DNA from: an uncultured Planctomycetia bacterium
GTDB taxonomy: Bacteria > Omnitrophota > Gorgyraeia > JABMRG01
Reading direction: 5' to 3'
Assembly: GCA_964634945.1 (NCBI GenBank)
Contig: CAZWMG010000009.1
Span: forward strand, 1,954 to 65,953
Length of the DNA: 64,000 nucleotides
Shown: positions 5,891 to 64,000 of the stretch, in pieces
How positions within the stretch are numbered: position 1 is the first letter of the stretch
How the letters are laid out: each line of letters starts with the position of its first letter
Notes under the pieces: generated by a model
What the model was told of the DNA's origin: nothing
What the model saw: only the letters and a program-made list of their open reading frames with translations
Database searches by the model: none
Translations under genes and position numbers: made by a program

Positions 5891-5895
5891 GAAAA

Positions 5896-47600: not shown

Positions 47601-47650
47601 TCAAGACCGGTTCTCAAGCACAACCGATCGTGCTTGAGAACCGGTCTTGA
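47601..47650. repeat. 50-bp perfect palindrome (21-bp stem, 8-nt loop), copy 1; a probable terminator of the 47801-50356 gene
   Basis: tcaagaccggttctcaagcac aaccgatc gtgcttgagaaccggtcttga, followed on the minus strand by attgtttttttattg. A near-identical copy lies at 52079-52126. Confidence 0.7.
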
Positions 47651-47800
47651 AGCTATATTTGTAATTGCTTATACCTCTACCTTTCCAGCGCAGGCCTTTT
47701 TGTTGCTGCTAAGGCTTTTTTAAGGAACGTAAAAAATGAGGGACGGACCCAATTAAGGACCCGTCCCCCTGGCAACTGTTCAACTCTATGCTTATTAAGC

Positions 47801-50356
47801 TTATGCCGCTATCAATGCCGCTAAAGCCTGTCTATGTAGCTGCTCATAATATGCCTCGTCTATGGCAACCGGCATAGGTAAGTCAAGAATGAAAACCGAA
47901 TTCTTCAAAAATGCCTCCAGTAATTTCGGAGACAAAGGAGACTTTGTTATAAATCTATACATCTGCGATATTATTCCGTTTAACACAGGTTTAGTGTCCT
48001 GGCTGTAACCTAATAACCCCTTCGCTAGAACAATGACCTGTTCTAATGGCAGGTATCCGTCCTGTGTAACCGATTGTATATCTATACGCCGCGATATATC
48101 TTCAACGGATTTGCTCGATATGACTATGGTATGGCCTTTACCACCTATTTTAGCATTGTATTGGCTCAAAAGCCTGACCTGGCAACCAAGTTTTGTCTGA
48201 AGCGCTTCCAGGTATGGGTTTGACTTATCAAGCATAGTAAGGAGTATTTTCTGATTAGCTGGTATATCTTTATCATTTATAACTATTGTACCTGTTGTCT
48301 CTGGAAGCAACGCGTCTTCGGCAACAATACTCTGTACCGCGGTCATTGTGTCAAGTGATGCCTGGACCTGACTAGCCTGCTCTGCCACAGCTATAGCAGC
48401 ATCCGGAGACAGACTCTTTATCTCTTCAAGTTTATTAATGGTCTCCTTGCATGCCCCTATCTGCCTTAACAGCATATCTGCATTAAGCTCAGGCATTGTG
48501 TTGGCACCTGTAAAAGCATATGTTGAACCAGAAAGATATGCCATGGCCTTTGCTATATCTTTTTCATAACCTGCTGAAGATTGCTTGATTGTTTGTTGTG
48601 CATCAAGACTTATTATCGTATTTTCAAGGCGAATTTTTTCTAATTCTACTCGAATTATTTCTTTTTCCAGCTCGACAACTTTAGCATCTGTTATGCTGCT
48701 GCCCTTTACATCGGTGTTGCGTGTTGGTTGGCCATTCACTGTTTCCTTTGCTCCACGGTCATTCGTTTTCGCCGCTAAAAGGTCTTTCTGCAAGTCTGTA
48801 AGCTTACCCTCTGCATTGGCAAGCCTACTTTGAGCAACTAAGAGTTTCGCATTATTGATTTTACTCAGGTCTACATTCATATCAGATAAGCTGTCAAATA
48901 GTCCGCTTGCTGCGTTATAACTATCTCGATCAAGACTACTAACTGCTGATGTAGCATCACTTATATCTCTAGGTTGTATCTGAGCGCCGATGTTAATAGC
49001 GTTATCAATAATTGTTTTCATACGATCAGCATCATTTGTACTAATAGTGCCTTCTGCTGCCATATTATCAAACATGCCCCTAGCCTCAGACCTTATCTCT
49101 ATTAATCTTTCAACAGCTGCTTCACGTACAGCAAGTTCCGGAGATTGCCACTGCGAAATAAGAATTAATACGGCTTCTTCATCAACCTTGAGGCCGCTAG
49201 AGGATGTCTTGACTAATGATTCTGACTTTGCAAGCATCTCTATGGCCTGCTCAAAACTAGCTATATATGATTGCGCTTGACCTATAGCCTGTCCAAGTTC
49301 TGCAATAACATTTGGATCCTTGTTTTCTTCTCGAAGCGCCGCTTCCAAGGCTTCCAACTCAGAAACTGTATCTTGGATCTGCAACGCAAATACGGTTTCA
49401 GGGTCTTTGCCATTAGCCTTGAGGTTATCTGTTATAGAATGAAAGATACCTGTAATAAACATACGTCTTACTTGATCAGTTGCTTCACTAATGCTCTTAA
49501 CGAGCAATGGTATAGCGTTAATGCCTTTTCCTTCTATATTTCTAGCAGTCTTTACAAGAAGCCACATAGATGTTTTTGGATCCAGGAATCGCTCAATCAT
49601 GCGGTCAAGATCTGCATCCGCATACAAATAACCGCTTGATGAAGTCTTTTCTAATATATCGCTGGGTAATATCTTTTGCATAGTTATCTCTATAGATGCC
49701 TGTAATATCGGATCAATCTCATTATCGCGAAGTATCTCAAGGTCAGGCAGCATCATCTCTGCAGCAGGGCCCATTTCTGATAATCTCCTCAGGGCATCTT
49801 GCAGGATATATGGATTGCCGCTTTCCTTATACTCTTCTAACTGAGGAGATATAGCTACTAACGCTTCGGTTATACCGGCAGATGAGGTCCTTGAAACCTG
49901 AAGAAGATTTTCAATAGATTCTCTCGGAGGCAATCCTACAAATACGCCAAGTTGGGTGGAGAGTGGCTCATTTTTGCTTATAACATCTGATATCGCGCCG
50001 GATTTATCGCTGGCTGACATAACCACCAAAAACTCTGATTTATCCGAATTATCAGTAAATGAGACTAGATATACAGGCATATTCGCTGAAGGGATATCAA
50101 GTTTTTGCGCGTTCTCAGGAATATCGCCGTCTTTTAGTGCCTTAGCTGCTCTAGCCATGCTATCCATACTACTAAGGCGAGCCTGATAAGCGTCATGCTC
50201 CGGCAGAGCAGGCTCATACCCAGGTTGCCTTACAGCAAGGTTTGCGATAGCGCAAGGCGCTATCTGTTCAGGCTGGTATACAGCGCTCGCGCTGAATACA
50301 AATATGCCTATCAGGAAACATACCTGCAACATAATGACAAATTTAGCGTTCTTCAT
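47801..50356 (-). CDS. Large secreted/periplasmic protein (851 aa), signal peptide then predominantly alpha-helical/coiled-coil; function unknown
   Basis: N-terminus MKNAKFVIMLQVCFLIGIFVFSASA is a Sec signal. It has long heptad-like stretches (e.g. LEKEIIRVELEKIRLENTIISL) and no motifs I recognise. Confidence 0.6.
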   Translation of the reverse strand: MKNAKFVIMLQVCFLIGIFVFSASAVYQPEQIAPCAIANLAVRQPGYEPALPEHDAYQARLSSMDSMARAAKALKDGDIPENAQKLDIPSANMPVYLVSFTDNSDKSEFLVVMSASDKSGAISDVISKNEPLSTQLGVFVGLPPRESIENLLQVSRTSSAGITEALVAISPQLEEYKESGNPYILQDALRRLSEMGPAAEMMLPDLEILRDNEIDPILQASIEITMQKILPSDILEKTSSSGYLYADADLDRMIERFLDPKTSMWLLVKTARNIEGKGINAIPLLVKSISEATDQVRRMFITGIFHSITDNLKANGKDPETVFALQIQDTVSELEALEAALREENKDPNVIAELGQAIGQAQSYIASFEQAIEMLAKSESLVKTSSSGLKVDEEAVLILISQWQSPELAVREAAVERLIEIRSEARGMFDNMAAEGTISTNDADRMKTIIDNAINIGAQIQPRDISDATSAVSSLDRDSYNAASGLFDSLSDMNVDLSKINNAKLLVAQSRLANAEGKLTDLQKDLLAAKTNDRGAKETVNGQPTRNTDVKGSSITDAKVVELEKEIIRVELEKIRLENTIISLDAQQTIKQSSAGYEKDIAKAMAYLSGSTYAFTGANTMPELNADMLLRQIGACKETINKLEEIKSLSPDAAIAVAEQASQVQASLDTMTAVQSIVAEDALLPETTGTIVINDKDIPANQKILLTMLDKSNPYLEALQTKLGCQVRLLSQYNAKIGGKGHTIVISSKSVEDISRRIDIQSVTQDGYLPLEQVIVLAKGLLGYSQDTKPVLNGIISQMYRFITKSPLSPKLLEAFLKNSVFILDLPMPVAIDEAYYEQLHRQALAALIAA

Positions 50357-50368
50357 TTTAATCTCCTT

Positions 50369-51916
50369 TTATATATTCTGTTTATAGCTTTTTGTATTTT
50401 CTTTTGCTTTTTTAATAAACTTTTCAAATTCAGTCTCTTCATCAAGAAGAACCGATTTATAAGGATTATCCAAATAAAGTTTCTCAACCTTTGGAGTAAC
50501 TACTATATATGATACTTGTCTTTCTTTTAAAAGTTTTGTTATCCCGTCTGTATGAAAACCACCTGATACCAAAACAGCGATATCAGTCTTATTTTTCTTC
50601 ATCTGATCAAGTGTGTTATGAACCAGGATACTATCGCGTTCCTGCGCGATCTTGTAGAACTTTTCTAGATCAGGGATTTTCGACGCTATCTTCCTAAAAG
50701 CCGGGTCGAGCTTATACTGGACCTTGTATTTATTCGCCGCGTCTGATATGAAATTAATAATATAAGACGGGGTAAACTCTCTTTTGTTCTCTCTGTAGTA
50801 TTGCAACGTCTCTTTTGTAAGCTTAAGGGCGAAGAGGTCCTTTAAGACATCGAGCGTGTATGAGAACCTGTCTATATCCCGCTGCGTGCTGTCTGTAAAA
50901 ATCTTATCCTTAAGGCTCGCCTCTATCTGATCTATTTCATTAAAGAGCGCTATATTATTTATCTCAGAATATTGCTTTATGTAGTCAACATATCTATGTA
51001 AGTCCGCGTAATCCGCCTCCATTGCCAAATCCGGCCCCCTTAAAGATATATCTTCAAGAAAACCATAGAATTCAAGGGCGCTTATCTTTTCTGCCTTGAA
51101 AAATAGGCTCTTATCTAATAATTCTGATAAGCTTTTTTTATCAAGTTTATCACCTAAATAATCCAGATACTCTGAGCGCTGGGTATCAACCTCTAAAAAA
51201 TCTATATCTGATTCCTTTTCAAGCACTTCTGTAAGCTTAACAAAGTTCGGGTAATCCCGTTGTTTTAGACTGTATTCTAAAATAAGTTTATTTAAATAGG
51301 CTATGTATGATGTAAAATCCATATCCTCAGCCTTGTAATCCTGGATATTTTTATCGAGTTCAAGCAGCTCCTTTGAATAGGCCTTGAATTTCAGTCTCTC
51401 TAGGATCTCCTTTATATTATTATAATATCTTTCATTATCTGCCTGGCCTTTTAGCGATTCCATATAGGCGTCTACATTCTCCTGGTGCAATTTGGCATCA
51501 TCCGCGCCAAAAAATGAAAAACCGCTATGTTTCATCATATGAGCAAAACCAGCGCCATCAAGCTCTCCGGTCTTTACAAAATATCGGGCAACACTCTCTT
51601 TTATATCGTCATTAGGGCGCTTTGAATAAGGCGCTGTTTCAAGCTGGCCAACAGAGCCTTCTATCGATACTAAATCGAGATTATATTTATCAATAAGTTC
51701 ATTAATTATATTATAGACAGATATCTGCGCGTCATAATTGCAATGCAGATCCTGTATATGAACTACTATTCCGCTGTCGCTACCTACAAAATGGCTATCT
51801 CTGATAGTGCCGTTAGCCTCTGATACCATCTCTCTTATATTATTAATAGACTGTGCATTTGCTGTAGAGGCACATACCATAGATAATAATGTTATAATAC
51901 CTAATATTCTCTTCAT
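50369..51916 (-). CDS. Secreted protein (about 515 aa), function unknown
   Basis: Start is chosen at MKRILGIITLLSMVCASTANA, a signal peptide; the track start is 15 codons upstream. It is preceded by a consensus sigma70 promoter. No family is recognised with confidence. Confidence 0.55.
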   Translation of the reverse strand: MKRILGIITLLSMVCASTANAQSINNIREMVSEANGTIRDSHFVGSDSGIVVHIQDLHCNYDAQISVYNIINELIDKYNLDLVSIEGSVGQLETAPYSKRPNDDIKESVARYFVKTGELDGAGFAHMMKHSGFSFFGADDAKLHQENVDAYMESLKGQADNERYYNNIKEILERLKFKAYSKELLELDKNIQDYKAEDMDFTSYIAYLNKLILEYSLKQRDYPNFVKLTEVLEKESDIDFLEVDTQRSEYLDYLGDKLDKKSLSELLDKSLFFKAEKISALEFYGFLEDISLRGPDLAMEADYADLHRYVDYIKQYSEINNIALFNEIDQIEASLKDKIFTDSTQRDIDRFSYTLDVLKDLFALKLTKETLQYYRENKREFTPSYIINFISDAANKYKVQYKLDPAFRKIASKIPDLEKFYKIAQERDSILVHNTLDQMKKNKTDIAVLVSGGFHTDGITKLLKERQVSYIVVTPKVEKLYLDNPYKSVLLDEETEFEKFIKKAKENTKSYKQNI

Positions 51917-52000
51917 AATATAAGGTGCCTTTTCTGCTGTTCCCATCCTTGTTATATACATTTTCTTACCTTAATATAACATTTTAAAAGTCTTTGATTA

Positions 52001-52029
52001 AGTATACGTTATTTTTCGCTGTATGTCAA
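52001..52029 (-). promoter_or_regulatory. Consensus sigma70 promoter (TTGACA - 17 nt - TATACT) with upstream A-tract repeats, driving the 50369-51916 gene
   Basis: The minus strand reads cTTGACAtacagcgaaaaataacgTATACTtaatc, with -35 at 52029-52024 and -10 at 52006-52001. Upstream is atcacaaaaaa x2, UP-element-like. Confidence 0.55.
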
Positions 52030-52078: not shown

Positions 52079-52126
52079 CAAGACCGGTTCTCAAACACAA
52101 TCGATTGTGCTTGAGAACCGGTCTTG
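52079..52126. repeat. About 48-bp palindrome, copy 2 of the 47601-47650 element, 10 nt downstream of the 1341-aa gene stop
   Basis: caagaccggttctcaaacac aatcgatt gtgcttgagaaccggtcttg. It shares flanking gaagcta with copy 1 and has a self-complementary loop aatcgatt. Confidence 0.7.
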
Positions 52127-52136
52127 AAGCTACAAT

Positions 52137-55100
52137 TTAGAATCTATACTGGCCGCCTAATGTAAGCCCGAAGGTCTCGAGCTTATTCTCAGGGGTCTCT
52201 ATGTTTACACTTCCATTATCAATACGATCCGCTCTTTCAAGATGCTGCAGATCCCAAAAACCGCCAAGATTAATATCAAATTTCTCAGAAAGATTGTAGT
52301 CACATCCACCTTCAGCATGCCATATAGTGCCCTGATCAGAGGTAGTCCTGCCAAGCTCGCTATTGTTTATAGGCACATATACAAGCGGCGCCCAATATCC
52401 GCTGCCATAGAAATTCATATTATTAACCGGCCCTGCCTCGATCCTCGCGCCTAAACCAGCATATGAAACATTGAAATTCTCATCAGCCTCGCCAAGCTGA
52501 GGCACTGTCGTAGATGTTGTAGTGATATTGCCTCTTGAAAATTCTACTCTCCTGTATCCTATATTAACCAGAGGGGCTACTGATAAGTATTTAGACTCAC
52601 TGGTTATTGCCCATCCTATATTAGCGTTAACATCAGCGCCTCTAAAACTCATATCATCTGTCTGGTAAGTACCTCTACCCTCATAATCCCATTTCTCTTC
52701 ATCTGTTAATGTGGTAAATAAGCCTAACCGTAGGCTACCTTCCCAATACTCTCTATCGTAAGCATCAAGGCCTAGATCGCATCTTAAGAGATAGTTATCC
52801 CAATCTGATTCTATTGGGGCTATATCCGCCTCTTCCTTATATTTTGCCCATCCTGTTGATAGCTTTGCTATGAATGTAGCTCCCGGAATAGCCGGGTTTA
52901 ATGGGCCCAGAGGGGTAGGGGTGGCGTTTTCTACATACTCAGAATCACCCTGTCTGTCTGATGGGCCAAAGGTACCTGTATACGCTACCCTTACAATATG
53001 CCTTGTATCAAGCGCGTTGATATCATCGTGCTGTTCAGGGGTATCATAATCATAGCCTACGTAGCTGCCATACATTATCCTTAAATGCTGATCCTGATTG
53101 AGCTGATAATCAAATGAGGCGAATATATTATGGTGGCCGTCAAAATGAGTGCCCTGATCAACAACAAATTCCTTATACAGGTCTCTCTGCCTAGTATATT
53201 GGTACAGGAAGCCAAGTGTAGTATTAGGACATGGTTGATATTCAAACTCAATAGCCTGCGCAGTAGGATTATCATCTATCGCCATGGCGTATTTGTTCTC
53301 ATTATATGTATATTTTAAAGTAATCTTAAGCGGGTCAAACGGAAAATAGGTAAATCGCGCTTTATATATATTATAATACGGATATTCCGGAAGGCCAAAG
53401 GCGGATTGATCATACAAAAAAGGAACCACCCTATCCCATACTATGCCATCCTTATAATAATCACCTACCCATACATTGTTTAAAAGTCCGCGCGGATAAT
53501 CCTTAGGGTCATTAGTAGTCTCAAAGATAGCTAAACCTGAAAAATAATCCGTAAAATCGTACTCCAGGCCTCCTGAAAAAGCGCCTATTGAAGGGTCCTT
53601 GCCTTCTTCTATGGCCACATTCTCAAGCCATATATCATCATAGGCAAAGTAATCCGTAAAGGCGCTATAAGAGCTTTTCGCGTTTATAAGCGGGTCTATA
53701 CCCTGTTTAGTCTTTGGAAGATGCTTGTAAAAAGCCAGTCCTTTAAGGGTCATCTTTTCTGTGGGCTGATAAGTTCCTTCTAATCTGTATACATCTTCTA
53801 TATGCTCATTGCCATCACTATAGACTGTCCTAAAATCAAACCTTGTATCTACATTCTGATCCGGAAACTCCGCTTTCGCGTTAACATTAAAGGCGTTTCT
53901 ACCTATGTCCATTCCGTTTCCAAACATTATCTCTTCGTTTCGAGGATCTATATCCTCGAAATATATATGTTTCGCGTACTCAAACTCTTTTCTTGTAAAT
54001 CTATAGTTACTCAAACCCGGGAAGAATTGATCGCCCATGCTGGCAAAGGATGCCTTAAGCTCATACCTATCTGCTGTCCCACTGGTTAGCGCGATAGGGC
54101 CCTGATTCTTTAAGCCAAAACTTCCAGCGTAACCTGTATAATCGTTATGATATCCACTGGCCTCTTCTGTATTCATATTACTTACGGCAAACTCCCCTAA
54201 TAGCTCTGTATTGTCAAAAAGCCGATAAGACCCGTCTAATGCGCCGAGATTATTCATCGCCTCTAATGACTGGTGGCGCATACCACCTTTAAAGGTATAC
54301 AGGCCTCCGAGTGTAAATCTATCAGATATTGGGGTCTTTACTCTTACCGCGGCCGGTATATTTGTTGCTTGGGTATATTCATCCCATAGGCTTCGCGGTG
54401 TCGCTACTACCATATCAACAGACGCGCCATTGGTAAAATCAGCCTTAAATGACGCTCCGCGAAGAAATGTAAGAAAATCATCATCACTATCCCTTGAGAC
54501 AAATGAGAGATTGCGTACCCATTGCCCCTTCTTTAAAGGCTGTCTTGAACCGTTAAACCCCTCAGGGGCAGAGGTGCCTGTTCTGTTAAATTCTTTACTT
54601 TGCTCATAGCGGTCGAGCCACGCGCCTTCTTCCCACCATACCTTGTTATTGGAAAGGCTCATAGGATCATCTGATGTAAGCGCCTCTTCCTGGCCCGCCA
54701 TCGCGAATACCTTTGCCTTGTAGGGTTCCGAATTATACTCAACCCATAATTTACGTATAGGCACATACATCCTGTCTATCTCTTCTTCCGGCACATTAAA
54801 TGTATTGGTACCCCAATCCGTAAGCCCTGAGTAACGCCCTACGGAGGTCTTATCTTCTTTAACCTTGTTCTCCTCTATACTTACAACATCTCCTCTGTCT
54901 GTCCTGTATGTCTCATTTATTGTACTTCTAACATTTGACCAATACTTATAGTCTATCTCAACATTATCTCCATTTGAGCCTGAGACAGATACCCTCTTTT
55001 TTCCAACAAATGTCCAAGGGTCTATTGTCATCTGACTAAAACCGCTTAATGTATCGGTTATGTGTACATCCATATCCATCTTAAGCCTGGAATATATCGC

Positions 55101-56162
55101 CTTGTCATAACTATTCTGCCTGTCTTTTCCAAAAATATATCTCCAGCTCGTATCTCCGGGCATATTATGATAATCCGCGTTAGCGTCTTTCCATAGAAAG
55201 TCATCTTCAGTCACACCGAATGCCATGCGATACTCACCTCTTATAACAGAAGGCGCGATATGACTGTTTATATTCTCTGTGCCTTCCTGTATTTTACTAT
55301 TTATACCATCTGAGAATTTCTCAAAAAAAGGAAGCTCACATCTAAAGGGCTCTTTCACATAAGGCGCTGGTGAAAGTTTTCTTTCTACGGCAACGGTTGA
55401 GGGATATTTAAGAGTAGCTGAAGGCGCTGGTTCCGGCTTTTTTGTTAATGAAGAAGGGAGTTTTTCACTCGGCTCTGGCCTTGCTGACACATAAGGCTTT
55501 TTGCTTGGTTCTGGTTGGGTTGATGTGTATGGCTTCTTGCTTGGTTCTGGTTGAGTATAGGGCCTCTTGCTTGGTTCTTTTTGAGTTGACGTGTAGGGCC
55601 TTTTGCTTGGTTCAGGTTGAGTATAGGGCCTTTTGCTTGGTTCAGGTTGAGTATAGGGCCTTTTGCTTGGTTCAGGATCTGAATTATTATAATAGGAATC
55701 CCTGCTTGACTGCTGAGCTACAACACGACGTGTTGGCTTATTTATAACAACATCCTGACTTTTCTGAGGCCCTAATGCGGATACAGGCCTCTTTAATGCA
55801 TACTCCTTATAGCTAACCGCGCGATTCATCGCGTCTTTTCTGGCCTGTTGTTTACTCTTGTTAACATGGCCCTTATTTGTCAGCATAGCCCTTGACATCG
55901 CTATTTTTAAACGCGCTTCTTCTGAATTTGGCTGAATTATAAGCGCTCTTTCATATGATTCTATCGCGGATTCATATTGCTTGTCATCAAGATAACCTTT
56001 AGCGCGATCCATATAATATTTGTAAGCGCTCTTATATTGGCACGGCGTAAAAAGTGTCTTCTTGTTTGTTTCAGAGGCACCCGCAAAATCCGATAAGAAC
56101 AAAATAAGCGCTATAAGTATAATTATATATATATTTTTTTTCATTATGTTTTTCCGCCACAC
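52137..56162 (-). CDS. Giant outer-membrane-type protein (1341 aa): signal peptide, TPR region, proline-rich PEPSKRPYTQ repeats, and a ~900-aa beta-barrel-like C-terminal domain ending ...GGQYRF
   Basis: Signal peptide IIILIALILFLSDFAGASE. TPR-like helices (YKYYMDRAKGYLDDKQYESAIESYERALIIQPN). Seven or more copies of PEPSK(R/K)PYT. Then about 900 aa of alternating-hydrophobicity strands rich in Y/G/D/N/T, with a C-terminal aromatic residue (F) typical of OMP barrels. Confidence 0.6.
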   Translation of the reverse strand: MWRKNIMKKNIYIIILIALILFLSDFAGASETNKKTLFTPCQYKSAYKYYMDRAKGYLDDKQYESAIESYERALIIQPNSEEARLKIAMSRAMLTNKGHVNKSKQQARKDAMNRAVSYKEYALKRPVSALGPQKSQDVVINKPTRRVVAQQSSRDSYYNNSDPEPSKRPYTQPEPSKRPYTQPEPSKRPYTSTQKEPSKRPYTQPEPSKKPYTSTQPEPSKKPYVSARPEPSEKLPSSLTKKPEPAPSATLKYPSTVAVERKLSPAPYVKEPFRCELPFFEKFSDGINSKIQEGTENINSHIAPSVIRGEYRMAFGVTEDDFLWKDANADYHNMPGDTSWRYIFGKDRQNSYDKAIYSRLKMDMDVHITDTLSGFSQMTIDPWTFVGKKRVSVSGSNGDNVEIDYKYWSNVRSTINETYRTDRGDVVSIEENKVKEDKTSVGRYSGLTDWGTNTFNVPEEEIDRMYVPIRKLWVEYNSEPYKAKVFAMAGQEEALTSDDPMSLSNNKVWWEEGAWLDRYEQSKEFNRTGTSAPEGFNGSRQPLKKGQWVRNLSFVSRDSDDDFLTFLRGASFKADFTNGASVDMVVATPRSLWDEYTQATNIPAAVRVKTPISDRFTLGGLYTFKGGMRHQSLEAMNNLGALDGSYRLFDNTELLGEFAVSNMNTEEASGYHNDYTGYAGSFGLKNQGPIALTSGTADRYELKASFASMGDQFFPGLSNYRFTRKEFEYAKHIYFEDIDPRNEEIMFGNGMDIGRNAFNVNAKAEFPDQNVDTRFDFRTVYSDGNEHIEDVYRLEGTYQPTEKMTLKGLAFYKHLPKTKQGIDPLINAKSSYSAFTDYFAYDDIWLENVAIEEGKDPSIGAFSGGLEYDFTDYFSGLAIFETTNDPKDYPRGLLNNVWVGDYYKDGIVWDRVVPFLYDQSAFGLPEYPYYNIYKARFTYFPFDPLKITLKYTYNENKYAMAIDDNPTAQAIEFEYQPCPNTTLGFLYQYTRQRDLYKEFVVDQGTHFDGHHNIFASFDYQLNQDQHLRIMYGSYVGYDYDTPEQHDDINALDTRHIVRVAYTGTFGPSDRQGDSEYVENATPTPLGPLNPAIPGATFIAKLSTGWAKYKEEADIAPIESDWDNYLLRCDLGLDAYDREYWEGSLRLGLFTTLTDEEKWDYEGRGTYQTDDMSFRGADVNANIGWAITSESKYLSVAPLVNIGYRRVEFSRGNITTTSTTVPQLGEADENFNVSYAGLGARIEAGPVNNMNFYGSGYWAPLVYVPINNSELGRTTSDQGTIWHAEGGCDYNLSEKFDINLGGFWDLQHLERADRIDNGSVNIETPENKLETFGLTLGGQYRF
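55468..55680. repeat. Tandem 30-33-nt coding repeats (encoding PEPSKRPYTQ units) within the 1341-aa gene
   Basis: gtatagggccttttgcttggttcaggttga occurs three times perfectly (55591-55680), preceded by about four diverged copies. The plus-strand spurious ORF 55442-55747 reflects the same periodicity. Confidence 0.8.
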
Positions 56163-56294: not shown

Positions 56295-56990
56295 TTATTG
56301 TACTCTGTATGTGAGAATAAGAGGCTGTGAATTTCTTAATATCTTTACTTCCAACTGATCCTTGCCTTTTAGCTTCCTATACGTGTTAAAGATCTGGTAT
56401 GGGCTATTCAGTGTAAGCCCGTTGACAGTCTCTATAATATCGCCCTGTTTAATCCCTATCTCTTTTAAGATACCATTTTCATTTAACTTTGTTATCGCTA
56501 TTCCGAGTTTTTTGCCATTGGCTGAATAGGGCCCTATCTTTACATCCCTCATAATATCACGAACCCTGGATATTGCGCCTGAGATAGTCTCTCTATCTGT
56601 GGTAATAGTATTGCCTTGCCTTACCACATTATACCATTTCTCATCATTAATCATGCCTGTAGCAGGTTGAGATACCCCGCCACCGGGCAACGTGAGCGTA
56701 AATTCCCCATCTGAAGAATTGAGTATGATCTCCCCTCTTTTTATCCGTACTATTTTAAACCCATCAACATCATCACCTAACTCATACATAACAATCTGTC
56801 CGCTCCTAGCATCCTCTATTATCGCCAAAGGGTTCAGGCTCTGGGTAAAGAGCGTGCCTTTGAGCGTAAGGCCTTGCGAAGAAGTACTACTTAAAGAACC
56901 TGCGACGTTACCCTGTCCTGCTTCAAGCGTAGCAAGTTGCGTTGTGACGCTTATCGCGATTATAAATATAACTTTCGATAGTCTGTTCAT
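56295..56990 (-). CDS. GspC/PilP-like protein with C-terminal PDZ domain
   Basis: N-terminal anchor and signal, an HR-like beta-sandwich (LKGTLFTQSLNPLAIIEDARSGQIVMYELGDDVDGFKIVRIKRGEIIL), then a PDZ domain (GIAITKLNENGILKEIGIKQGDIIETVNGLTLNSP). Confidence 0.6.
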   Translation of the reverse strand: MNRLSKVIFIIAISVTTQLATLEAGQGNVAGSLSSTSSQGLTLKGTLFTQSLNPLAIIEDARSGQIVMYELGDDVDGFKIVRIKRGEIILNSSDGEFTLTLPGGGVSQPATGMINDEKWYNVVRQGNTITTDRETISGAISRVRDIMRDVKIGPYSANGKKLGIAITKLNENGILKEIGIKQGDIIETVNGLTLNSPYQIFNTYRKLKGKDQLEVKILRNSQPLILTYRVQ

Positions 56991-56992
56991 CT

Positions 56993-59900
56993 CTATACTC
57001 GTTTCTTGGCGAGGGCTACAAGTGGTTTTAATAAAAACCGCGTTATCCTCTTTAGCGCAGGCCTGTTGCTAATAAAATTAGCTATAGGCGGACTATACCT
57101 GTAATAGCTCCATACAAACTCTCTTCCTAATGAGTTTCTCATCAGGTATTTGTCTCTGAATTGTCTTAAAGCGATAACATCGCCAGCCATAGGCGTACCA
57201 TAAGCCGCTGTAGCTATAAAACAGTAGCTTGCTGTAGAAGAGCCGTCACTTGAGGCGTTTCCCGCTCCTCCGGCTGCAGCGGCAGCGGCAGCGGCGCCCC
57301 ATCCAAATATTGTAAGGTGATTGACTGTAGCGGATACGTAATTTTCATTTGGATGAACTACAGAGTCATAAAGCACTTCCCACAGCCCTGTGCTATCATT
57401 GAACCATCTAAGCTTTAAGTCATTCTCATTTATATTTGTGCCATCTACTATCCCATTATTATCCGCATCAGGATATGATATAGATAGGGTAATATCTTTT
57501 AGAAATGTGTTAACACCTGTTATATTAATATCGATAGTGCCACCTGCTCCGGAGACCATAACCTCCTCTATTGTAACATCCGGCATAGTACCATCGTCAG
57601 GTAGGGCCCCCTGTGGTATCTCTATTCTCGTACCATCCGGGAGAACTATTGTATTAGACTGCGCCGGATCAATAATCTGCTTCTTTACATAACTACCATT
57701 ACTATTTTCATAGATATCCGGATTTAAAGCGTTATTATCAACAATCAGAGAGATAACCTTAAATGATGTCAGATCTAATCCATTTACAGCTGCCCTGACT
57801 TGATAAGCCTGCCCATTAATAAGGGTTGTAGTGTCCCATGTTGTGGTATATGACATAACAGGGGTACCTTTACCAATATCTGTCCATAGAAGGTCTCCCA
57901 GCTTCCTATACTGGAACATAACCTCGGTCACGCCCGGATTATCCGGGTAGACCTCAGATACGAGTGAGATTGAATTTCCGGCTACAGTATCCCCTTCTTT
58001 AGGTATCTTTATATAACTTGAGTAAAACCCGATTGGATATTTTGAGAATACAGGTATATAAAAAGTATCCACAAGTCCGTTTGTGTTTGTTATTCTTAGC
58101 ATAGCGACACAAAACCCGGGGAACTGATAATTATATATCGGCGTATCCGATGATTTTGTTGTAGTATAATCTATATTCTTATCACCATCAAAATCCCATT
58201 CGTATTTCGCTATCGTGCCTGTGCTCAGAGAATGGTTAAAGACGGCCTGCACTGGAGATGTCGCGTCTATCGAAATAGCGTTAACTGTCGTATCGTAAGA
58301 TACAGTTGCCTGTGCCCTAAGAGTAGGTTCACTACCTGAAATTATGATCAATGCGCTATTGGATGAAGAAAGATTTGCTTCTGTATGCGCTTTTAGAGTA
58401 GCCCTGTAAACACCCGGCGCTCCATATACATGCGTCACATCCGCAAAACCCGTCCAACTAGGATTCTCTATTGAACTCGACCAGTCATTTATTCCATCTC
58501 CTTCAAAATCCCATTCCAGTTTTTTAGCGTATCCATAGCTATTGCCGCCTGCCGGCATGCCATATCCACCCAAAGAGACAGGAGCGCCTGTTGCACCTTG
58601 GATTATATAGCTATTCAAAAATACTTCCGGCCTGTAAACAGATCCATCCCATTTAGTAGCGTTAGCCATTACACTCATCTCTGCCACATCTGATAAACCC
58701 TGTGAATCTGTTACCCTGATCCCGCCGGTAAATATCCTTGATATTGTCTCATTGTATGTCCTTGTTATATCCGCGGATTTAGATGATGATATATCATACT
58801 CTCCATCGCCTGTTGTATCCCATTGGTATCTGACAATCTCAGCAGAGCCTGAAGCAGTAGCCTTAAGCTCCTTAAGAGATGGTATTATAATTTCATTTGC
58901 GATAGGATACGGAAGTAGGCCTCCTGCAAGCTGTGCTATAGGCGACAATGCGCTACCTAAGACATTAACTGTTACCGTAGAAATATCTATATTCCCCAAG
59001 CTATTCGTAGCGCGCATCCTGACATTATAGGCCCCTGCCGCTGTATATTTGTAGCTTACGACGCTTCCCTCTGAGGCATAGTGCCATCTGTCATAAGTAC
59101 CGTTTCCATCAAAATCCCATTCATACTTTACAACATCAGTGCTTACCACAGTAGATGAGAAAGTAACATCAAGAGGCAACTGCCCGCTTGATGGCAAGGC
59201 TGATAGCGCGATACCAATAGTATTATCAAATATATTTACACCGCTTACAGTTAACTTATAATCCTCGAGGCTTGTAAGGCCATTAGTGCCCACCTCATAG
59301 GCATTATACGGGTCATAAGGATCCGCGTCATAATTATCAGGTATGCCGTCATAATCACTATCTCCACTCGGTGGCGTTATGGGCCCTACATTAGGAATGC
59401 CCTTTCCTCCGTCATCAAGATACGGAATATAGCCTGTTTTCGCAAATACAAAATAGACTGAGGCAAGAGCAGCTTCACAATTATATGTATCAAATCCCGT
59501 TCCGGTTGGTACATTACCTGCCACACTCTTATCAAGATATGAGGCATATGGCGCGATATATGATGCTGGGTCATCACTCGGAACTTTAAAGAAGTTTTCA
59601 AGACTGGCAACTAGGGTATTGTACCTATCCAGATAATACGCGGCCTTAGTGTCATTGCCTGAGTCATGATATAACTGCGCAGCCCTTAAATAAGCAAGTG
59701 CCATCTGTGAAGATATCTCAACAGACCCATAATTTCCAGTCTGTGAAATAGAGAACCTGAAAAATATTGGCTTACCAGCAATGTTAAAAAACGCGGTTTT
59801 TGACTCTATCACAGAAAACATCTGATCAAGCTCTTGCTCTCTTAAGGCTTGTGTACCGCCAAAAAACGCGTCATCAAAGATCATATCCAATGGCGCCAGA

Positions 59901-60898
59901 GCCATTACATCGGTTGCGATATAATTAAAGTCTGTCTTTACCCATGCGCCGCCAACATAACTTGCCGCTGAATGGAAAAGATGGACACTAGGATCATACA
60001 TGCTCTTAAGCCATGTTTTTATACTATCAGCTGCCTGCTGGTATACTATATCACCTGTCATCTTATACAATGCTTCAAAGGCATAAAGGGCACGCTCATT
60101 CTGTTCTGTTGATTTAAGATGCCAGAAGAAATAATCACCTGTAGGGTGTGGCATGCCTATGGGGCCATAACGCAAGCCCCCGTCTGTGTCCTGCAATTTA
60201 AACATATACTCGCCTAAGAGGATAGAGAAATCCTTATACGCTTGATTCTGGGTCTTGCTATAGGCCTCAGCCGCGTACATAATAAGCACAGATGCGGCAC
60301 CAGTATCAACAGACCAATCCCAGATCTTCCACCAATCTATTACATCCCTGTTTAATATCCTTACTATCCTGTAAGGGCCGTATAATATCTGATTCCCGCT
60401 TGCGTCTGTATAACCATCGCTACATTTTAAAAGCGGATTATTCACATCTAAGCGCTGATAATAATAATTTATATAGGTATCTAGTATCGTTGTCACGCCA
60501 TTAAATAATGATATCCTTCCAAGAAGCGCCTGATCATAAGCTGAAGCTCCGGAGGTCATTAAATCCACATCACCAGCGGTTCCTCCGCCTAAATACTTCT
60601 GAAAACTTCTTGTAAGGCCATTGAAGGCATAATCTGTCTGCAGGGTATTATCCAATGCCCTGTCTAAGAAATATTTTACATATGGCACAGCTGAGTTATA
60701 AAAAATCGGCTTAGGGGGATATGGCAAGCTACTTCCACCACCTATGGTAACTGATGCTGAAAAGTTCTTCTTCGCCAAAGAGTCAAACGCGGCAAATGAT
60801 AAAGGAACATCAAGAAGGCAGACCGCGACAACAAGTAAAACGCTTACGCATTTTAGTTTTAGTCCGCTCAATATATTTCTCTTTATCATAAGATCCAT
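56993..60898 (-). CDS. Giant secreted multidomain protein (1301 aa): N-terminal alpha/alpha-toroid-like region, at least four PKD domains, a beta-sandwich region, an Ala/Gly linker and a conserved Cys-containing C-terminal tail
   Basis: Signal peptide. PKD signatures YEWDFDGNGTYD, YQWDTTGDGEYD, LEWDFEGDGIND, YEWDFDGDKNID. It ends ...GWGAAAAAAAAGGAGNASSDGSSTASYCFIATAAYGTPMAGDVIALRQFRDKYLMRN...KPLVALAKKRV. Confidence 0.65.
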   Translation of the reverse strand: MDLMIKRNILSGLKLKCVSVLLVVAVCLLDVPLSFAAFDSLAKKNFSASVTIGGGSSLPYPPKPIFYNSAVPYVKYFLDRALDNTLQTDYAFNGLTRSFQKYLGGGTAGDVDLMTSGASAYDQALLGRISLFNGVTTILDTYINYYYQRLDVNNPLLKCSDGYTDASGNQILYGPYRIVRILNRDVIDWWKIWDWSVDTGAASVLIMYAAEAYSKTQNQAYKDFSILLGEYMFKLQDTDGGLRYGPIGMPHPTGDYFFWHLKSTEQNERALYAFEALYKMTGDIVYQQAADSIKTWLKSMYDPSVHLFHSAASYVGGAWVKTDFNYIATDVMALAPLDMIFDDAFFGGTQALREQELDQMFSVIESKTAFFNIAGKPIFFRFSISQTGNYGSVEISSQMALAYLRAAQLYHDSGNDTKAAYYLDRYNTLVASLENFFKVPSDDPASYIAPYASYLDKSVAGNVPTGTGFDTYNCEAALASVYFVFAKTGYIPYLDDGGKGIPNVGPITPPSGDSDYDGIPDNYDADPYDPYNAYEVGTNGLTSLEDYKLTVSGVNIFDNTIGIALSALPSSGQLPLDVTFSSTVVSTDVVKYEWDFDGNGTYDRWHYASEGSVVSYKYTAAGAYNVRMRATNSLGNIDISTVTVNVLGSALSPIAQLAGGLLPYPIANEIIIPSLKELKATASGSAEIVRYQWDTTGDGEYDISSSKSADITRTYNETISRIFTGGIRVTDSQGLSDVAEMSVMANATKWDGSVYRPEVFLNSYIIQGATGAPVSLGGYGMPAGGNSYGYAKKLEWDFEGDGINDWSSSIENPSWTGFADVTHVYGAPGVYRATLKAHTEANLSSSNSALIIISGSEPTLRAQATVSYDTTVNAISIDATSPVQAVFNHSLSTGTIAKYEWDFDGDKNIDYTTTKSSDTPIYNYQFPGFCVAMLRITNTNGLVDTFYIPVFSKYPIGFYSSYIKIPKEGDTVAGNSISLVSEVYPDNPGVTEVMFQYRKLGDLLWTDIGKGTPVMSYTTTWDTTTLINGQAYQVRAAVNGLDLTSFKVISLIVDNNALNPDIYENSNGSYVKKQIIDPAQSNTIVLPDGTRIEIPQGALPDDGTMPDVTIEEVMVSGAGGTIDINITGVNTFLKDITLSISYPDADNNGIVDGTNINENDLKLRWFNDSTGLWEVLYDSVVHPNENYVSATVNHLTIFGWGAAAAAAAAGGAGNASSDGSSTASYCFIATAAYGTPMAGDVIALRQFRDKYLMRNSLGREFVWSYYRYSPPIANFISNRPALKRITRFLLKPLVALAKKRV

Positions 60899-60899
60899 A

Positions 60900-61694
60900 T
60901 TAGTTACCTACCTTTGCAGATCGCACCATCTCTATAGTATTGCCTGAGACACTGAAAAGGGCTTGCTTACTTATTTTTCCTATCTTATCTTCATAATCTA
61001 ACACTACTGTCGCGGTATACGTGCCGTCTCTTAAAAACGGATTGCGCCACCCAAGCCTATAAGTATGTTTCTTGCCGCGCAACACTATATTTGGCCTAAC
61101 AAGAGACATCTCTTTTAATATCTTACCTTCGCTATTCTTTATAGAGGCCTTTACATCAGGGACTATATGCACATTACCTATATTTTCTATATCTACTATA
61201 ATATTAAGATCATATACATTATTATCATTCTTAGTATAAGTACATTCTATATTATCTATGACAAGGCCATAATCTTCTGTTCCTTTAACTATCATATATA
61301 ATGGTACACCGTTTCTAATATTGAGCTGTGATTCACTGGTATCCTTATAACATAAAAAGAGCATTGCTACCATCTCACCAACAGCATCCTCAGGCGCGGA
61401 GACTTCAACAACTATTGGGCTGGACTCTCCTGCTCTTACATAGACATTATCATTTTCTAGATCCAGCCAGGTATATGGGTCTTTAGAGCCTGACCACGCC
61501 TCAGGGGCTATTGTAATACTTACGTCTTTACTACCGGTATTATGGACCTGATATTTAACTGCTCTATCTTCCCCCGGTAAAAGAGATACAATATGCCTAT
61601 CCGGCTCAACACTGATGCCAGCGCTTACCTCAGATATAGGCATCTGAATTATAGCGAAAATCACAATTATCATTAAATATTTAATTATCTTCAT
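60900..61694 (-). CDS. Secreted protein (264 aa), function unknown
   Basis: Signal peptide MKIIKYLMIIVIFAIIQMPISEVSA followed by a beta-rich sequence. It sits 1 nt downstream of the next gene's stop, so it is operon-like. Confidence 0.55.
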   Translation of the reverse strand: MKIIKYLMIIVIFAIIQMPISEVSAGISVEPDRHIVSLLPGEDRAVKYQVHNTGSKDVSITIAPEAWSGSKDPYTWLDLENDNVYVRAGESSPIVVEVSAPEDAVGEMVAMLFLCYKDTSESQLNIRNGVPLYMIVKGTEDYGLVIDNIECTYTKNDNNVYDLNIIVDIENIGNVHIVPDVKASIKNSEGKILKEMSLVRPNIVLRGKKHTYRLGWRNPFLRDGTYTATVVLDYEDKIGKISKQALFSVSGNTIEMVRSAKVGN

Positions 61695-61705
61695 ATTTTT
61701 CCAGA

Positions 61706-63001
61706 TTAATATCTATCAAACCTTATATCATCCAAATAAATATTGCATCCATCAGGAGCAGGATCATGGTCCTCTGCAAATACTATTGTAACTCCACCTG
61801 TTACATCAGACATATTCCTTCCCAAGACCGGTATCACATATTCCTGCCAGGTAGTGGTTAAAGCAGGCGTACGCCACAAAGGCGGGGTCTGCCCGCAGGA
61901 ATCCCAGTTATTACCAAAATATGTCTTTATCTGCATACCTGAATTGCTTGAATCTGTTCTTGCCCAAAAACTTAGGTAATTAGCCCCTCTTAGATCATAG
62001 CCATTATGTGTAGAGCTGTTTCCGTTTACGTCCCAAATATTAGAGGGCTCAAGCCACATTATGCCGCCCCATTTCCATCCATCGCTTCCACCATTACCAT
62101 TCCATGCGATTTTAAAAGAATGTGTTCCTGAATGGGGTGCTACATCTTTGCATTTTGGATCCACACTGATTTGTCCGGCATAATTTATCCATCCTGAAGG
62201 AGCAAAGTGATTCTCTAGAGTAGCCCCGGGCTCGGTAGGATACTCTGTCTTTGGCGCGTCTTTGTAAAGATACATTGGAAATGGCGACAACCCCTTAAAC
62301 GCCTCTATAGTTAGAGTAGATGTGTCGTACTCCGCGCCAACGGAAGACATAGTAAAATTGGCAGCTAGATATATATAAGCCCTTTTAGGATTACCGCTTC
62401 TTCCCCCTTCGTTCCAGGCTATACCTGCCTGGCTCCATAAGGTTACATACTCCTCACCATTAACAAAGGCCTCATCCCCCGGAGCGGCGGGATCATCAGG
62501 GGTGTTTTTATCTTTAATAAAGTGCCACAGATAATCATCAAAACCTAATCCATCAGAGCGCGGCACAGGATTAGATGGGTTACTAATTACAGCATCTGTA
62601 ATCCGCCAGGCAACAGGAAGTGCCATTATTGTATTATTAACACTTATCAATCCCGCGGGATCGGCTGTACCTGTATATCTAGGAATAGCAGAAGCGGATT
62701 TATTATTTGTATAGAATTGCATACCCCAAGTCTCCGGGAGATTGCTATGAGAAATCTCTATATATTGGTTAGCTACCTTCCAACTTGTTACGCCCGCTGA
62801 GACGCTACTCCAGGTGATAATACCACCCGGTGCAAGCTGGTTATCACTGACATTTCTTACAACTACATTAACCGTGCCGCTTCCCGCGTTTATTACAGAA
62901 AGAGCCGCAGTATCAGCCATACAATTTTGAGCAGCTGATAGAAATATCGCTATAGCTAACAAATATATAATCTTCTTAAGATTTCCACAAATCAGATACA
63001 T
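61706..63001 (-). CDS. Secreted protein (431 aa), paralogous in its N-terminal about 200 aa to the 63130-63897 product
   Basis: Signal LAIAIFLSAAQNCMA. Shared motifs with the neighbour are W...A.QYI(E/A), WG(M/I)Q(F/I)YTNN, PAGLI and LP..WR. It has an extra C-terminal domain. Confidence 0.6.
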   Translation of the reverse strand: MYLICGNLKKIIYLLAIAIFLSAAQNCMADTAALSVINAGSGTVNVVVRNVSDNQLAPGGIITWSSVSAGVTSWKVANQYIEISHSNLPETWGMQFYTNNKSASAIPRYTGTADPAGLISVNNTIMALPVAWRITDAVISNPSNPVPRSDGLGFDDYLWHFIKDKNTPDDPAAPGDEAFVNGEEYVTLWSQAGIAWNEGGRSGNPKRAYIYLAANFTMSSVGAEYDTSTLTIEAFKGLSPFPMYLYKDAPKTEYPTEPGATLENHFAPSGWINYAGQISVDPKCKDVAPHSGTHSFKIAWNGNGGSDGWKWGGIMWLEPSNIWDVNGNSSTHNGYDLRGANYLSFWARTDSSNSGMQIKTYFGNNWDSCGQTPPLWRTPALTTTWQEYVIPVLGRNMSDVTGGVTIVFAEDHDPAPDGCNIYLDDIRFDRY

Positions 63002-63129
63002 AATATTTTCTCTTTTTAGTTTTCTTCTTTATTCTATATTTAATATTTCATAATATATAAGAATCCTGGCCCTGCCATGGTCCTGGCTGACATAAGAATA
63101 TCAGACAGGACCAGGAAAAATCTTATATA

Positions 63130-63897
63130 TTATAAACGGTACATCTCCACTGTTAAGCTATTGACATCTGTAGCATAAGTTACGCCGGGCATTGCCAATG
63201 TAAAGCTTGCGCCAAGATAGACATAGTAAGTCGTATCAGTAGCAAATGGTGTCGCGTAATTCACAGCACCGGGTGCATGATGATATCCAGCTGAACCTAT
63301 AAAGGTTGCTTCTGCCTGATAGTCACCAAACGGCTGTGTACCTGCTGTTGAAGTATCAACATCACCGTTCTTATCCAACATGAAAAACCATGGATAATAA
63401 TCAATTGCCGGTGTTGTACCATCAGCAAGAACCCAGTATCCACTTACCATTTTTTGGATTATACCAAGTTCAACGCTACCTGCAGCAAGCTTAGCTGTCT
63501 TTGTTCTCCAGCACATAGGAAGGCTGTAAAGCGGATTTGACTGATTGATCAATCCGGCAGGACTGCCTGTACCTGTATAACTGGTGTTATTGGTATATAT
63601 CTGTATACCCCAGTCAGTATAGGTCGCGAAACCCTCAACTGCGATATACTGATCCGCCGCTAACCAGCTTGTAGTGCCTGATGAAACCCCTGTCCATGTC
63701 GCGGAAGTAGCTGCTGTATCATTCGAGATATTCTTCATAGCAGCACTAAACGGGACTGTTACAGACGGAACTCCACCTACAACACCGCTGTTTGCTGTAT
63801 ACCGCTCGTTACCAATAGACTGAAAAGCCGCGAACGACAAACTGCTTGTGGAGATTACCATCGTAATCGCTATAACGATAGATAATGCTCTTTTCAT
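63130..63897 (-). CDS. Secreted protein (about 255 aa), paralog of the 61706-63001 N-terminal domain
   Basis: Start is chosen at MKRALSIVIAITMVISTSSLSFA, with RBS AGGAAAGGAGG about 7 nt upstream; the track start at 63957 lacks an RBS. It shares the N-terminal-domain motifs listed for the neighbour. Confidence 0.6.
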   Translation of the reverse strand: MKRALSIVIAITMVISTSSLSFAAFQSIGNERYTANSGVVGGVPSVTVPFSAAMKNISNDTAATSATWTGVSSGTTSWLAADQYIAVEGFATYTDWGIQIYTNNTSYTGTGSPAGLINQSNPLYSLPMCWRTKTAKLAAGSVELGIIQKMVSGYWVLADGTTPAIDYYPWFFMLDKNGDVDTSTAGTQPFGDYQAEATFIGSAGYHHAPGAVNYATPFATDTTYYVYLGASFTLAMPGVTYATDVNSLTVEMYRL

Positions 63898-64000
63898 TTT
63901 TCTTGCCTCCTTTCCTCTAGATTTTTCTAATAAACTTTTTAATACTTTACACATCATATTTCCTCCCTTTACTTTTTTGTTTTATCTATATAAAATTATA

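Follow-up and report, generated by a model that had tools for sequence, protein, structure and literature searches.

What does an uncultured bacterium of the phylum Omnitrophota do with eight consecutive genes that all encode secreted proteins? The question is raised by a 64,000-nucleotide stretch of contig CAZWMG010000009.1 (assembly GCA_964634945.1, forward-strand positions 1,954 to 65,953), hereafter the window, in which eight co-directional open reading frames (ORFs) occupy the minus strand from position 63957 down to 47801. In the direction of transcription they are g1 (63130-63957, 275 aa), g2 (61706-63001, 431 aa), g3 (60900-61694, 264 aa), g4 (56993-60898, 1301 aa), g5 (56295-56990, 231 aa), g6 (52137-56162, 1341 aa), g7 (50369-51961, 530 aa) and g8 (47801-50356, 851 aa). 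Omnitrophota are abundant, uncultured and ultra-small, and they are thought to live as predators or parasites; the block bears on the question of how they touch and feed on other cells. A preliminary description of the window had proposed a single, undescribed assembly or export module, with g6 as its outer-membrane channel, g5 as the periplasmic adaptor and the remaining proteins as surface cargo. The answer we favour is a mosaic of three linked units that would most likely capture, trim and import a beta-linked glycan, an interpretation to which we give a little less than even weight.

The run of eight secreted-protein genes was confirmed. The N-termini of all eight proteins, inspected by eye in the translations, are basic, then hydrophobic, and lead to a small-residue cleavage-like site, and the earlier calls of TPR, PKD, PDZ and T2SS-C (HR) domains were reproduced by single-sequence hidden Markov model (HMM) scans. 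The upper limit of the block, placed at 63957, was not. An identical public contig (L001; L numbers denote loci and contigs compared here) continues beyond base 64000 with a third paralog, g0 (273 aa), followed by a cellobiose/chitobiose-type phosphorylase of glycoside hydrolase (GH) family 94 (both in L001 1-2995), so that the apparent boundary only reflects where the window ends. The nearest relatives of the GH94 protein are cellobiose phosphorylase (E 2.7e-145) and chitobiose phosphorylase (E 4.6e-131).

Distribution of the block was assessed through g6. The 103 g6 homologs found in the protein collection are all from metagenome-assembled genomes (MAGs) of Omnitrophota, and a scan of one genome per species revealed relatives in 201 species genomes; 80 of these 201 loci, all of Omnitrophota type, were kept, and ORFs were called and clustered in the fetched loci. 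The conserved order is GH94, g1-type paralogs, a large g2, g3, g4, g5, g6, g7, a gene in the g8 position, a CE4 deacetylase, comEA, comEC and PilZ. It is kept in full in L010, L015, L016 and L019-L021, and also in metagenome contigs L103, L106 and L107, with protein identities of 37-59% across at least nine other species-level genomes or contigs. Because the whole order recurs in this way, the block is more than a chance arrangement, and the co-occurrence check suggested in the preliminary description comes out in its favour within one clade. Many of the source genomes (L012, L014, L017, L020 and others) are GTDB species-representative MAGs titled 'uncultured Planctomycetia bacterium' or 'uncultured Planctomycetales bacterium'. 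MAGs with such titles carry the Omnitrophota-specific locus at up to 88% identity, and the titles appear to be outdated or wrong taxonomic labels.

Genes g0-g5 are present in some and absent in other close relatives. A locus with a g6 ortholog 76% identical to that of the window (L013) has GH94 followed by g6-g7-g8, without g0-g5, and in the complete genome CP070655.1 (L007) GH94 likewise leads directly to g6-g7-g8. Where the g0-g5 module was seen, it always lies between GH94 and g6 and never elsewhere. In total, the g6 family was found in more than 70 loci without g5 or g0-g4.

In most of these other loci g6 is short, ~900 aa, and ends exactly at the position of residue 1065 of the window protein. 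The short g6 belongs to a string of genes for a small PilZ protein, a solute-binding protein (SBP), two ABC permeases, a GH clan-A-like protein, a ~240-aa protein resembling a carbohydrate-binding module (CBM), a GH-like protein, g6 and a ROK protein. In another locus type, g6 stands back-to-back with a 1077-aa GH94. Considering all loci, a carbohydrate-related neighbour of g6 was found in 72 of 83, and in 40 of the 41 that have at least 4 kb on each side. Since sugar-import and glycoside hydrolase genes (SBP with two ABC permeases, GH clan-A-like, CBM-like ~240-aa proteins, ROK, GH94) are the constant neighbours of g6, glycan acquisition is indicated. In L008 and L009 the string starts right behind giant genes of 16,951 and 17,444 aa, respectively. 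A neighbourhood of a giant gene, pilZ, an SBP/ABC transporter and a glycoside hydrolase was described by West-Roberts et al. (bioRxiv 10.1101/2023.11.21.568195), who do not mention an outer-membrane component of it; g6 is a candidate for that component.

The g6 protein is built of a signal peptide, a TPR unit (aa 48-88), proline-rich PEPSKRPYTQ repeats, a large all-beta core (aa ~306-1065, ending in TGTF) and a further barrel of 10 strands (aa ~1095-1341, ending in YRF). The decapeptide occurs about seven times and is encoded by tandem 30/36-nt repeats at nt 55455-55676. Orthologs span 1248-1395 aa, and because they vary in linker length, a tunable periplasm-spanning spacer is suggested. An AlphaFold2 (AF2) model of aa 290-1341, based on 65 homologs, is all-beta (pLDDT 83.6, pTM 0.73) and shows a beta-rich N-terminal part, ~24 long strands up to residue ~1065 and, set apart from them, 10-12 strands that form the OpcA/OmpT-like extra C-terminal barrel. 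Core and full-length protein alike terminate in an aromatic residue, as is usual for outer-membrane proteins, and the C-terminal phenylalanine resembles a beta-signal. For g6, an outer-membrane beta-barrel is predicted with good confidence, while closure of the barrel, pore and plug are inferred. The earlier proposal of g6 as an outer-membrane channel thus stands as far as the predicted barrel is concerned. A channel dedicated to the cargo of this block is not supported, because the g6 family occurs in so many loci without g5 or the cargo genes.

Identity of g6 with LptD, BamA, a secretin, a TonB-dependent transporter or BcsC/PgaA was considered and rejected, as HMM scans gave no support and no specific fold match was found. 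The combination that characterizes LptD, an OstA N-terminal jellyroll with an OstA_C barrel, was not detected in g6. In Foldseek searches with the whole model, SlpA of Deinococcus ranks first (E 4.5e-11), with a TM-score of only 0.23-0.25.

Upstream of g6, an indication of glycan binding comes from g2. Its AF2 model (pLDDT 90.7, pTM 0.83) consists of two beta-sandwiches, an N-terminal one of the g1 type and a CBM-like one at the C-terminus. Foldseek matches in the PDB are tandem CBM22, the B. thetaiotaomicron surface glycan-binding protein B (SGBP-B) and CBM30, 16, 4 and 11, the CBM families being matched at E 8e-7 to 1e-4 and target TM-scores of 0.5-0.63. As modelled, the sandwiches of g2 have a CBM-type fold. 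In addition, the C-terminal domain of g2 is 33% identical to the ~240-aa proteins encoded beside short g6 genes and belongs to the same family. The paralogy noticed earlier is evident from the alignment of g1 with the N-terminal half of g2 (33% identity, E 6e-26). As a single-domain secreted protein, g1 represents the small form of what we call the g1 domain. Its 89 homologs are almost all from Omnitrophota, with a few from Elusimicrobia, and no sequence relative of the domain was found in Pfam or the PDB, profile search included.

The third protein, g3, is a secreted protein of two immunoglobulin (Ig)-like domains, matched by 476 representative clusters of ~260-aa proteins. Single-sequence searches of the PDB with g3, as with g4 and g7, gave nothing useful. 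The g3 family profile matches E. faecium WxLIP1 (9i25/9i1y) across both Ig-like domains at E 7e-6, WxLIP_PGBD matches 11 of 68 family members, and the similarity of the profile to CsuC and PapD_N is weak. No C-terminal transmembrane (TM) helix is present in the g3 translation. Association of g3 with g1-type proteins extends to other genomes: an Elusimicrobia locus (L011) carries three ~252-aa paralogs, g3 and a 423-aa paralog, in an untyped contig (L092) a g1-like protein comes after a g3 homolog, and in another untyped contig (L093) a protein of more than 2420 aa that ends in a g1 domain is directly followed by a g3 homolog and then by ROK. WxL clusters show the layout of small WxL, large WxL and WxLIP (PMC10599100), and a role in carbohydrate utilisation was originally proposed for Csc clusters (PMC1534035). 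By analogy, g0-g3 can be called organised like a WxL/Csc cluster, short of membership in that family. The g1 domain itself was tested as a WxL domain and rejected, with 0 Pfam WxL matches in 75 members of the g1/g2 family and no PDB relative; the resemblance is one of analogy only.

The g4 protein was described as a giant rich in PKD repeats, with a tail resembling a sorting signal and, as for the whole block, with no recognisable enzyme. The PKD repeats are present, and the tail is the NCBIfam CFI-box-CTERM domain NF041770 (aa 1226-1294, ~nt 57017-57223; 97.9 bits against a cut-off of 40). Its CFIATAAYG motif was found only in g4 homologs and is conserved in 10 of 10; no literature on the CFI-box was found among searchable papers. 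The absence of enzymes holds for single-sequence Pfam scans. It is limited to such searches, because a family profile (A5) of the g4 N-terminal ~500 aa matches (alpha/alpha)6 glycosidases in the PDB, with E 3e-7 to 1e-5 for GH76 alpha-1,6-mannanases and 2e-4 for cellobiose 2-epimerase, a barrel of AGE type. This GH76-like domain occupies aa 37-530 (~nt 59309-60790, minus strand), and D86, E229, D294 and E358 are invariant in the alignment. The first ~500 aa of g4 also align with the central domain that the ~850-aa g2 carries in sister genomes (L010 2720-5290) and with the C-terminus of PilZ-TM proteins beside GH94 (L007 5430-7367). Occurrence of the (alpha/alpha)6 domain on g4, g2 and PilZ-TM proteins points to shuffling within the locus, with a possible link to cyclic di-GMP (c-di-GMP).

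Behind g4, g5 has the architecture of an N-terminal anchor, an HR domain and a PDZ domain, in agreement with its earlier description as a GspC-like adaptor. It matches NCBIfam GspC_delta NF041515 with E 1.2e-28 and 100.8 bits (cut-off 150), TIGR01713 with 51.4 bits (cut-off 101.6) and Pfam T2SSC with 22.9 (cut-off 27), and a PDZ_2 match is found too. The gene lies between g4 with its CFI-box and g6 in 10 of 10 loci, starting 1-2 nt behind g4 or overlapping it (in the window, the start codon is 2 nt past the g4 stop), and it occurs beside g6 only where g4 is present. No gsp genes and no gsp operon with GspD were found around g5 in the window or in nine related loci. Binding of the g5 PDZ domain to the extreme C-terminus of g4 was considered and rejected, as the last residues of g4 homologs are not conserved.

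The last two genes lead to the giant proteins of this phylum. Invariant QDLHC, EG and GGFHTxG motifs were found in the alignment of the g7 family (A4), which has no relatives in Pfam, NCBIfam or the PDB, profile search included. A metagenome scan gave 450 relatives, the contigs bearing them being represented by L108-L171. In more than half of 79 fetched g7 loci, the domain forms the start of an ORF of 1000 to >3275 aa, often truncated by the end of the contig; the remaining loci have a free protein of ~500-600 aa and then a large gene. As an illustration, in the Elusimicrobia locus (L011 15552-) the g7 domain heads a protein of 11,756 aa. The g7 domain may be the unannotated N-terminal region of the 'giant' proteins noted in the literature, and the family offers a handle on that region. 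The order H...E...GGFH invited the guess of a hydrolase of Tiki/TraB/GumN/ChaN type, which found no support in a PDB profile search or in Pfam scans of eight members and is a conjecture.

The g8 protein begins with a signal or anchor at its N-terminus, continues with a variable body and closes with a conserved C-terminal domain whose last residues are ALIAA. Homologs in the g8 position (from L010, L013, L016, L018-L020 and L094-L105) are 432-1444 aa long and alignable with one another only at their ends. Four [KR]xSS[AS]G motifs are present in g8, at aa 156, 237, 383 and 591. The related motif [KR][ASTQP]S[SA][AS]G has 18 occurrences in the 947 ORFs (424,404 residues) of the fetched loci, confined to seven ORFs, each of which lies immediately downstream of a g7 homolog. 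These K-x-S-S-x-G motifs may be processing or modification sites.

Transcription signals divide the block. The preliminary description had reported tight co-directional packing with gaps of 1-130 nt; the genes are co-directional, while the intergenic gaps from g1 to g8 are 128, 11, 1, 2, 132, 175 and 12 nt and thus reach 132 and 175 nt. A sigma-70-like promoter precedes g7 (52001..52029, minus strand; TTGACA, 17 nt, TATACT, 11 of 12 matches), and a hairpin with a T-run resembling an intrinsic terminator follows just after the g8 stop (47738..47769, minus strand). The block is not one operon because of the gaps, the strong promoter before g7 and the terminators after g8. Likely transcription units are g0/g1, g2-g3-g4-g5, g6 and g7-g8, and the gaps of 11, 1 and 2 nt indicate that g2-g3-g4-g5 are probably translationally coupled. 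No Rfam match suggesting a riboswitch or other RNA control was found in the block or upstream of it in L001.

Two copies of a 50-bp palindrome, thought to bracket the block, enclose only g7-g8. One copy (52079..52128) directly follows the g6 stop and has no T-run behind it, and the other (47600..47649), just ahead of the deacetylase gene, has a minus-strand T-run behind it. The palindrome has a perfect 22-bp stem, the two copies match at 94%, and no further copies were found in the window. The pair may act as insulators or terminators or constitute a small repeat element. That they mark the ends of a mobile block was rejected, given only two copies, their position flanking g7-g8 and the resemblance of one of them to a terminator. 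With three or more transcription units, palindromes that do not bracket the block and a g6 that is widespread alone, the idea of a single export module is not supported. The remaining proteins do look like surface proteins, as had been proposed, and the novelty of the set is upheld as well: the g6 family, the g1 domain, the g4-g5 pair, g7 as the head of giant proteins and the g8 motif are absent from searchable papers.

Because the common theme of the conserved partners is glycan binding, cleavage and import, we read the block as a locus for surface glycan capture and import, resembling either a polysaccharide utilisation locus (PUL) or a Csc cluster, with a confidence that falls just short of an even chance. 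In unit A (g0-g5), CBM-type binders and a glycosidase-like protein would be displayed on the cell surface: g0 and g1 as small proteins of one beta-sandwich, the g1 domain, g2 as a g1 domain joined to a CBM, g3 as a two-Ig-domain partner of the g1 domain, and g4 as a PKD-spaced (alpha/alpha)6 glycosidase-like protein held by its CFI-box C-terminal domain. The g5 protein would probably hand g4, and perhaps others, to an outer-membrane channel, either a type II secretion system (T2SS) secretin encoded elsewhere or g6. Unit B is g6, a phylum-wide barrel whose TPR unit and proline-rich linker would form a tether toward the periplasm, and which would most likely let oligosaccharides pass into the periplasm. 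Final breakdown would fall to the cytoplasmic GH94 cellobiose/chitobiose-type phosphorylase and CE4 deacetylase. Unit C (g7-g8), with its own promoter and terminators, can be seen as a split miniature of the giant surface proteins, in which g7, the giant-protein N-terminal domain, would possibly be a metal- or thiol-dependent processing enzyme and g8 a variable surface protein that g7 may process at its K-x-S-S-x-G motifs.

Several points weigh against this interpretation. Its functional claims draw wholly on context and predicted folds. No SBP/ABC importer lies beside the block in the window, where the major facilitator superfamily (MFS) sugar transporter is 17 kb away. The g5 protein is of a secretion type and suits export of g0-g4 better than import. 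The GH76-type match of g4 covers only ~110-150 of the 360 positions of profile A5, and the g1 domain has no sequence link to known carbohydrate-binding or WxL families. As a general porin or envelope tether, g6 could have neighbours that mirror the position of a housekeeping gene, and g7-g8 may have no functional tie to units A and B.

Two other explanations survive best, each of them unlikely. The first is one dedicated export or assembly machine, close to the original proposal, in which g6 would be a channel with the role of an usher or secretin, g5 the HR and PDZ adaptor docked on it, g0-g4 the cargo and g3 a chaperone. HR domains of GspC bind N0 domains of secretins in the established T2SS, and the GspC architecture of g5, its invariable place between g4 and g6 and its tight coupling to g4 fit such a machine, as do the very large barrel of g6, the two Ig domains of g3 with their faint PapD_N and CsuC similarity, and a pilus cluster in the window that lacks a secretin. 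The combination typical of chaperone-usher systems, a PapD-like chaperone with a PF00577 usher carrying a plug and N- and C-terminal domains, was not found. Against the machine stand the more than 70 loci with g6 and without g0-g5, including L013 (76% identity) and CP070655.1. The extra barrel of g6 does not track g5: L020 and L021 have g5 and no extra barrel, L013 has the extra barrel and no g5, and with presence and absence uncorrelated the barrel was rejected as a docking site for g5. Furthermore, g5 and g6 are parted by the 132-nt gap and a promoter-like site, and according to a preprint Omnitrophota genomes have gspD at another site, in a T2SS-like locus, so that g5 may serve that secretin. 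If the export machine were real, it would be a novel route for secretion or assembly, centred on a GspC-like adaptor and lacking a secretin.

The second, for which we see the same low likelihood, denies the block a common function. The g6 protein would be a general porin or tether with a role like that of SlpA or OmpM, g0-g5 an independent island for adhesion or surface display that was inserted next to it, and g7-g8 small kin of the giant adhesins used for attachment to host or prey. In its favour, the top Foldseek match of g6 is a 30-strand tethering porin, SlpA; the N-terminus of g6 is a periplasmic module followed by a proline-rich linker, and its family occurs in 201 species genomes; g0-g5 come and go between close relatives like an insertion or deletion; promoters and terminators are separate; and g7 is the N-terminal domain of giant proteins that have been proposed as adhesins. 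Against it, g6 is associated with genes for sugar import and GHs in 40 of 41 loci, spread over several locus types, which would be unusual for a housekeeping porin. HMM scans gave no SLH match and no OmpA-like peptidoglycan-binding domain in g6, the TM-score to SlpA is low, and g0-g5 are carbohydrate-themed (CBM-like, GH76-like) and always lie between GH94 and g6 in the loci seen.

We consider it somewhat less probable again that the block is an unrecognised diderm pathway for surface display, an estimate that applies to all its parts jointly. The g1 domain would be a new anchoring module at the outer surface, acting with a WxLIP-like g3 as either a deeply divergent relative or a convergent version of the Gram-positive WxL system. 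The CFI-box C-terminal domain would be recognised by g5 as a dedicated GspC-like adaptor docking on g6; g6 would represent a new giant two-barrel class of outer-membrane protein serving as an export or anchoring platform as well as a glycan gate; and g7, as an N-terminal processing domain of bacterial giant proteins not annotated so far, would cut or modify its substrate at K-x-S-S-x-G. Such a pathway would be a possible diderm counterpart of the WxL/WxLIP surface-display logic.

Finally, export of an exopolysaccharide, with g6 as a porin of BcsC/PgaA/PelB type, CE4 modifying the polymer and PilZ giving c-di-GMP control, is very improbable: the TPR-then-barrel order of g6, the CE4 and PilZ genes nearby and the PilZ-domain proteins that adjoin GH94 in other loci speak for it, but no glycosyltransferase or synthase was found in the block or at any related locus, CE4 has no signal peptide while PgaB-type enzymes are periplasmic, g6 combines one TPR unit, against the long arrays of BcsC, PgaA and PelB, with a much larger beta region, and the neighbours (SBP/ABC importer, ROK, phosphorylase) are catabolic.

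The conserved downstream neighbour of g8 is a CE4 (NodB-type) polysaccharide deacetylase (46938..47588, minus strand; Pfam Polysacc_deac_1, E 3e-38). It is cytoplasmic, without a signal peptide, and its motifs TFDDGP, HTYDHP and RPPYG make up a complete NodB set; its position is kept in L007, L010, L016 and L018-L020. The block was said to lie downstream of comEC, comEA and this gene. The adjacency is correct, and the direction is the opposite, the block being upstream by transcription. The suggested link to pilus and competence functions had this adjacency as its one argument, and the comEA/comEC/CE4 arrangement is kept within one clade and absent elsewhere; the link is not supported. A stand-alone PilZ protein of 122 aa after comEC (44544-44912) shows 71-85% identity across the clade, well above its neighbours.

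In the rest of the window, a cluster resembling those of T2SS and type IV pili (T4P) extends from 5387 to 17432 and contains T2SSE, pseudopilins, T2SSF, T2SSG, a PilM-PilN fusion, PilO and a PilP-like HR protein. As noted earlier, no secretin gene accompanies it within the window. A 791-aa YfhO-like membrane protein is encoded in its middle, and the HR protein, of PilP/GspB/GspC type, has 167 aa. A TreT-type trehalose synthase and a DUF5752 protein are found at the other end of the window (2214-4131). The MFS sugar transporter is located at 29968-31341, and between it and an apolipoprotein N-acyltransferase gene there are three tRNA genes on the minus strand (31539-32082), the only Rfam matches in the window.

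Compared with known systems, the block shares parts with several. Deinococcus SlpA gives the best Foldseek match to the whole g6 model, at the low TM-score given above, and unlike SlpA, g6 has no SLH domain or coiled coil. To our knowledge, two barrels in one polypeptide are not a feature of SlpA or of OpcA/OmpT-type barrels. With GspC of the T2SS, g5 shares the order of anchor, HR and PDZ and its coding together with glycan-active surface proteins; the Klebsiella Pul system exports a surface-anchored glycosidase. In contrast to GspC, g5 stays under the curated cut-offs, the block contains no further gsp gene, and the T2SS/T4P-like cluster of the window is 39 kb off, with its own PilP-like HR protein and no secretin.

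The neighbourhood of Omnitrophota giant proteins is similar in that short g6 genes close it and g7 is homologous to the N-terminal domain of giant ORFs. It differs in that g7 is a separate protein of 530 aa followed only by the 851-aa g8, the pair being downstream of g6. The outer-membrane barrel, g0-g5 and the K-x-S-S-x-G motif, which may mark processing sites in g8, are not mentioned by West-Roberts et al. (bioRxiv 10.1101/2023.11.21.568195).

The WxL/Csc clusters of Firmicutes correspond to the block in their small anchoring-domain protein (g0/g1), large fusion (g2, or the protein of more than 2420 aa in L093) and two-Ig partner (g3), whose profile matches E. faecium WxLIP1 at E 7e-6. The g1 domain differs in having no WxL signature and g3 in having no C-terminal TM helix, and the block adds a CFI-box protein and a GspC-like protein. 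Moreover, because its host is a diderm, unlike those of WxL/Csc clusters, an exposed peptidoglycan wall cannot be the attachment target.

The PULs of Bacteroidota likewise combine a large outer-membrane barrel with CBM-like secreted or lipoprotein binders, glycosidase-like proteins, a sugar importer and a regulator or kinase. The match of the g2 model to B. thetaiotaomicron SGBP-B and to CBM families agrees with this likeness, and the neighbour statistics fit it. The g6 protein differs by its TPR unit and proline-rich N-terminus, joined in this clade by a second barrel of 10 strands. The 22-strand barrel, plug and TonB box of SusC-type receptors (Pfam TonB_dep_Rec, Plug) were not found in it, and it has no SusD-like partner. 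The inner-membrane step of the block would be ABC or MFS, and all its parts come from different families. Since the features that define PULs, WxL/Csc clusters, T2SS GspC and SlpA/OpcA/OmpT-type barrels are either missing or matched at the level of fold only, the block belongs to none of these systems, and it is most likely a glycan-utilisation surface locus made from new protein families.

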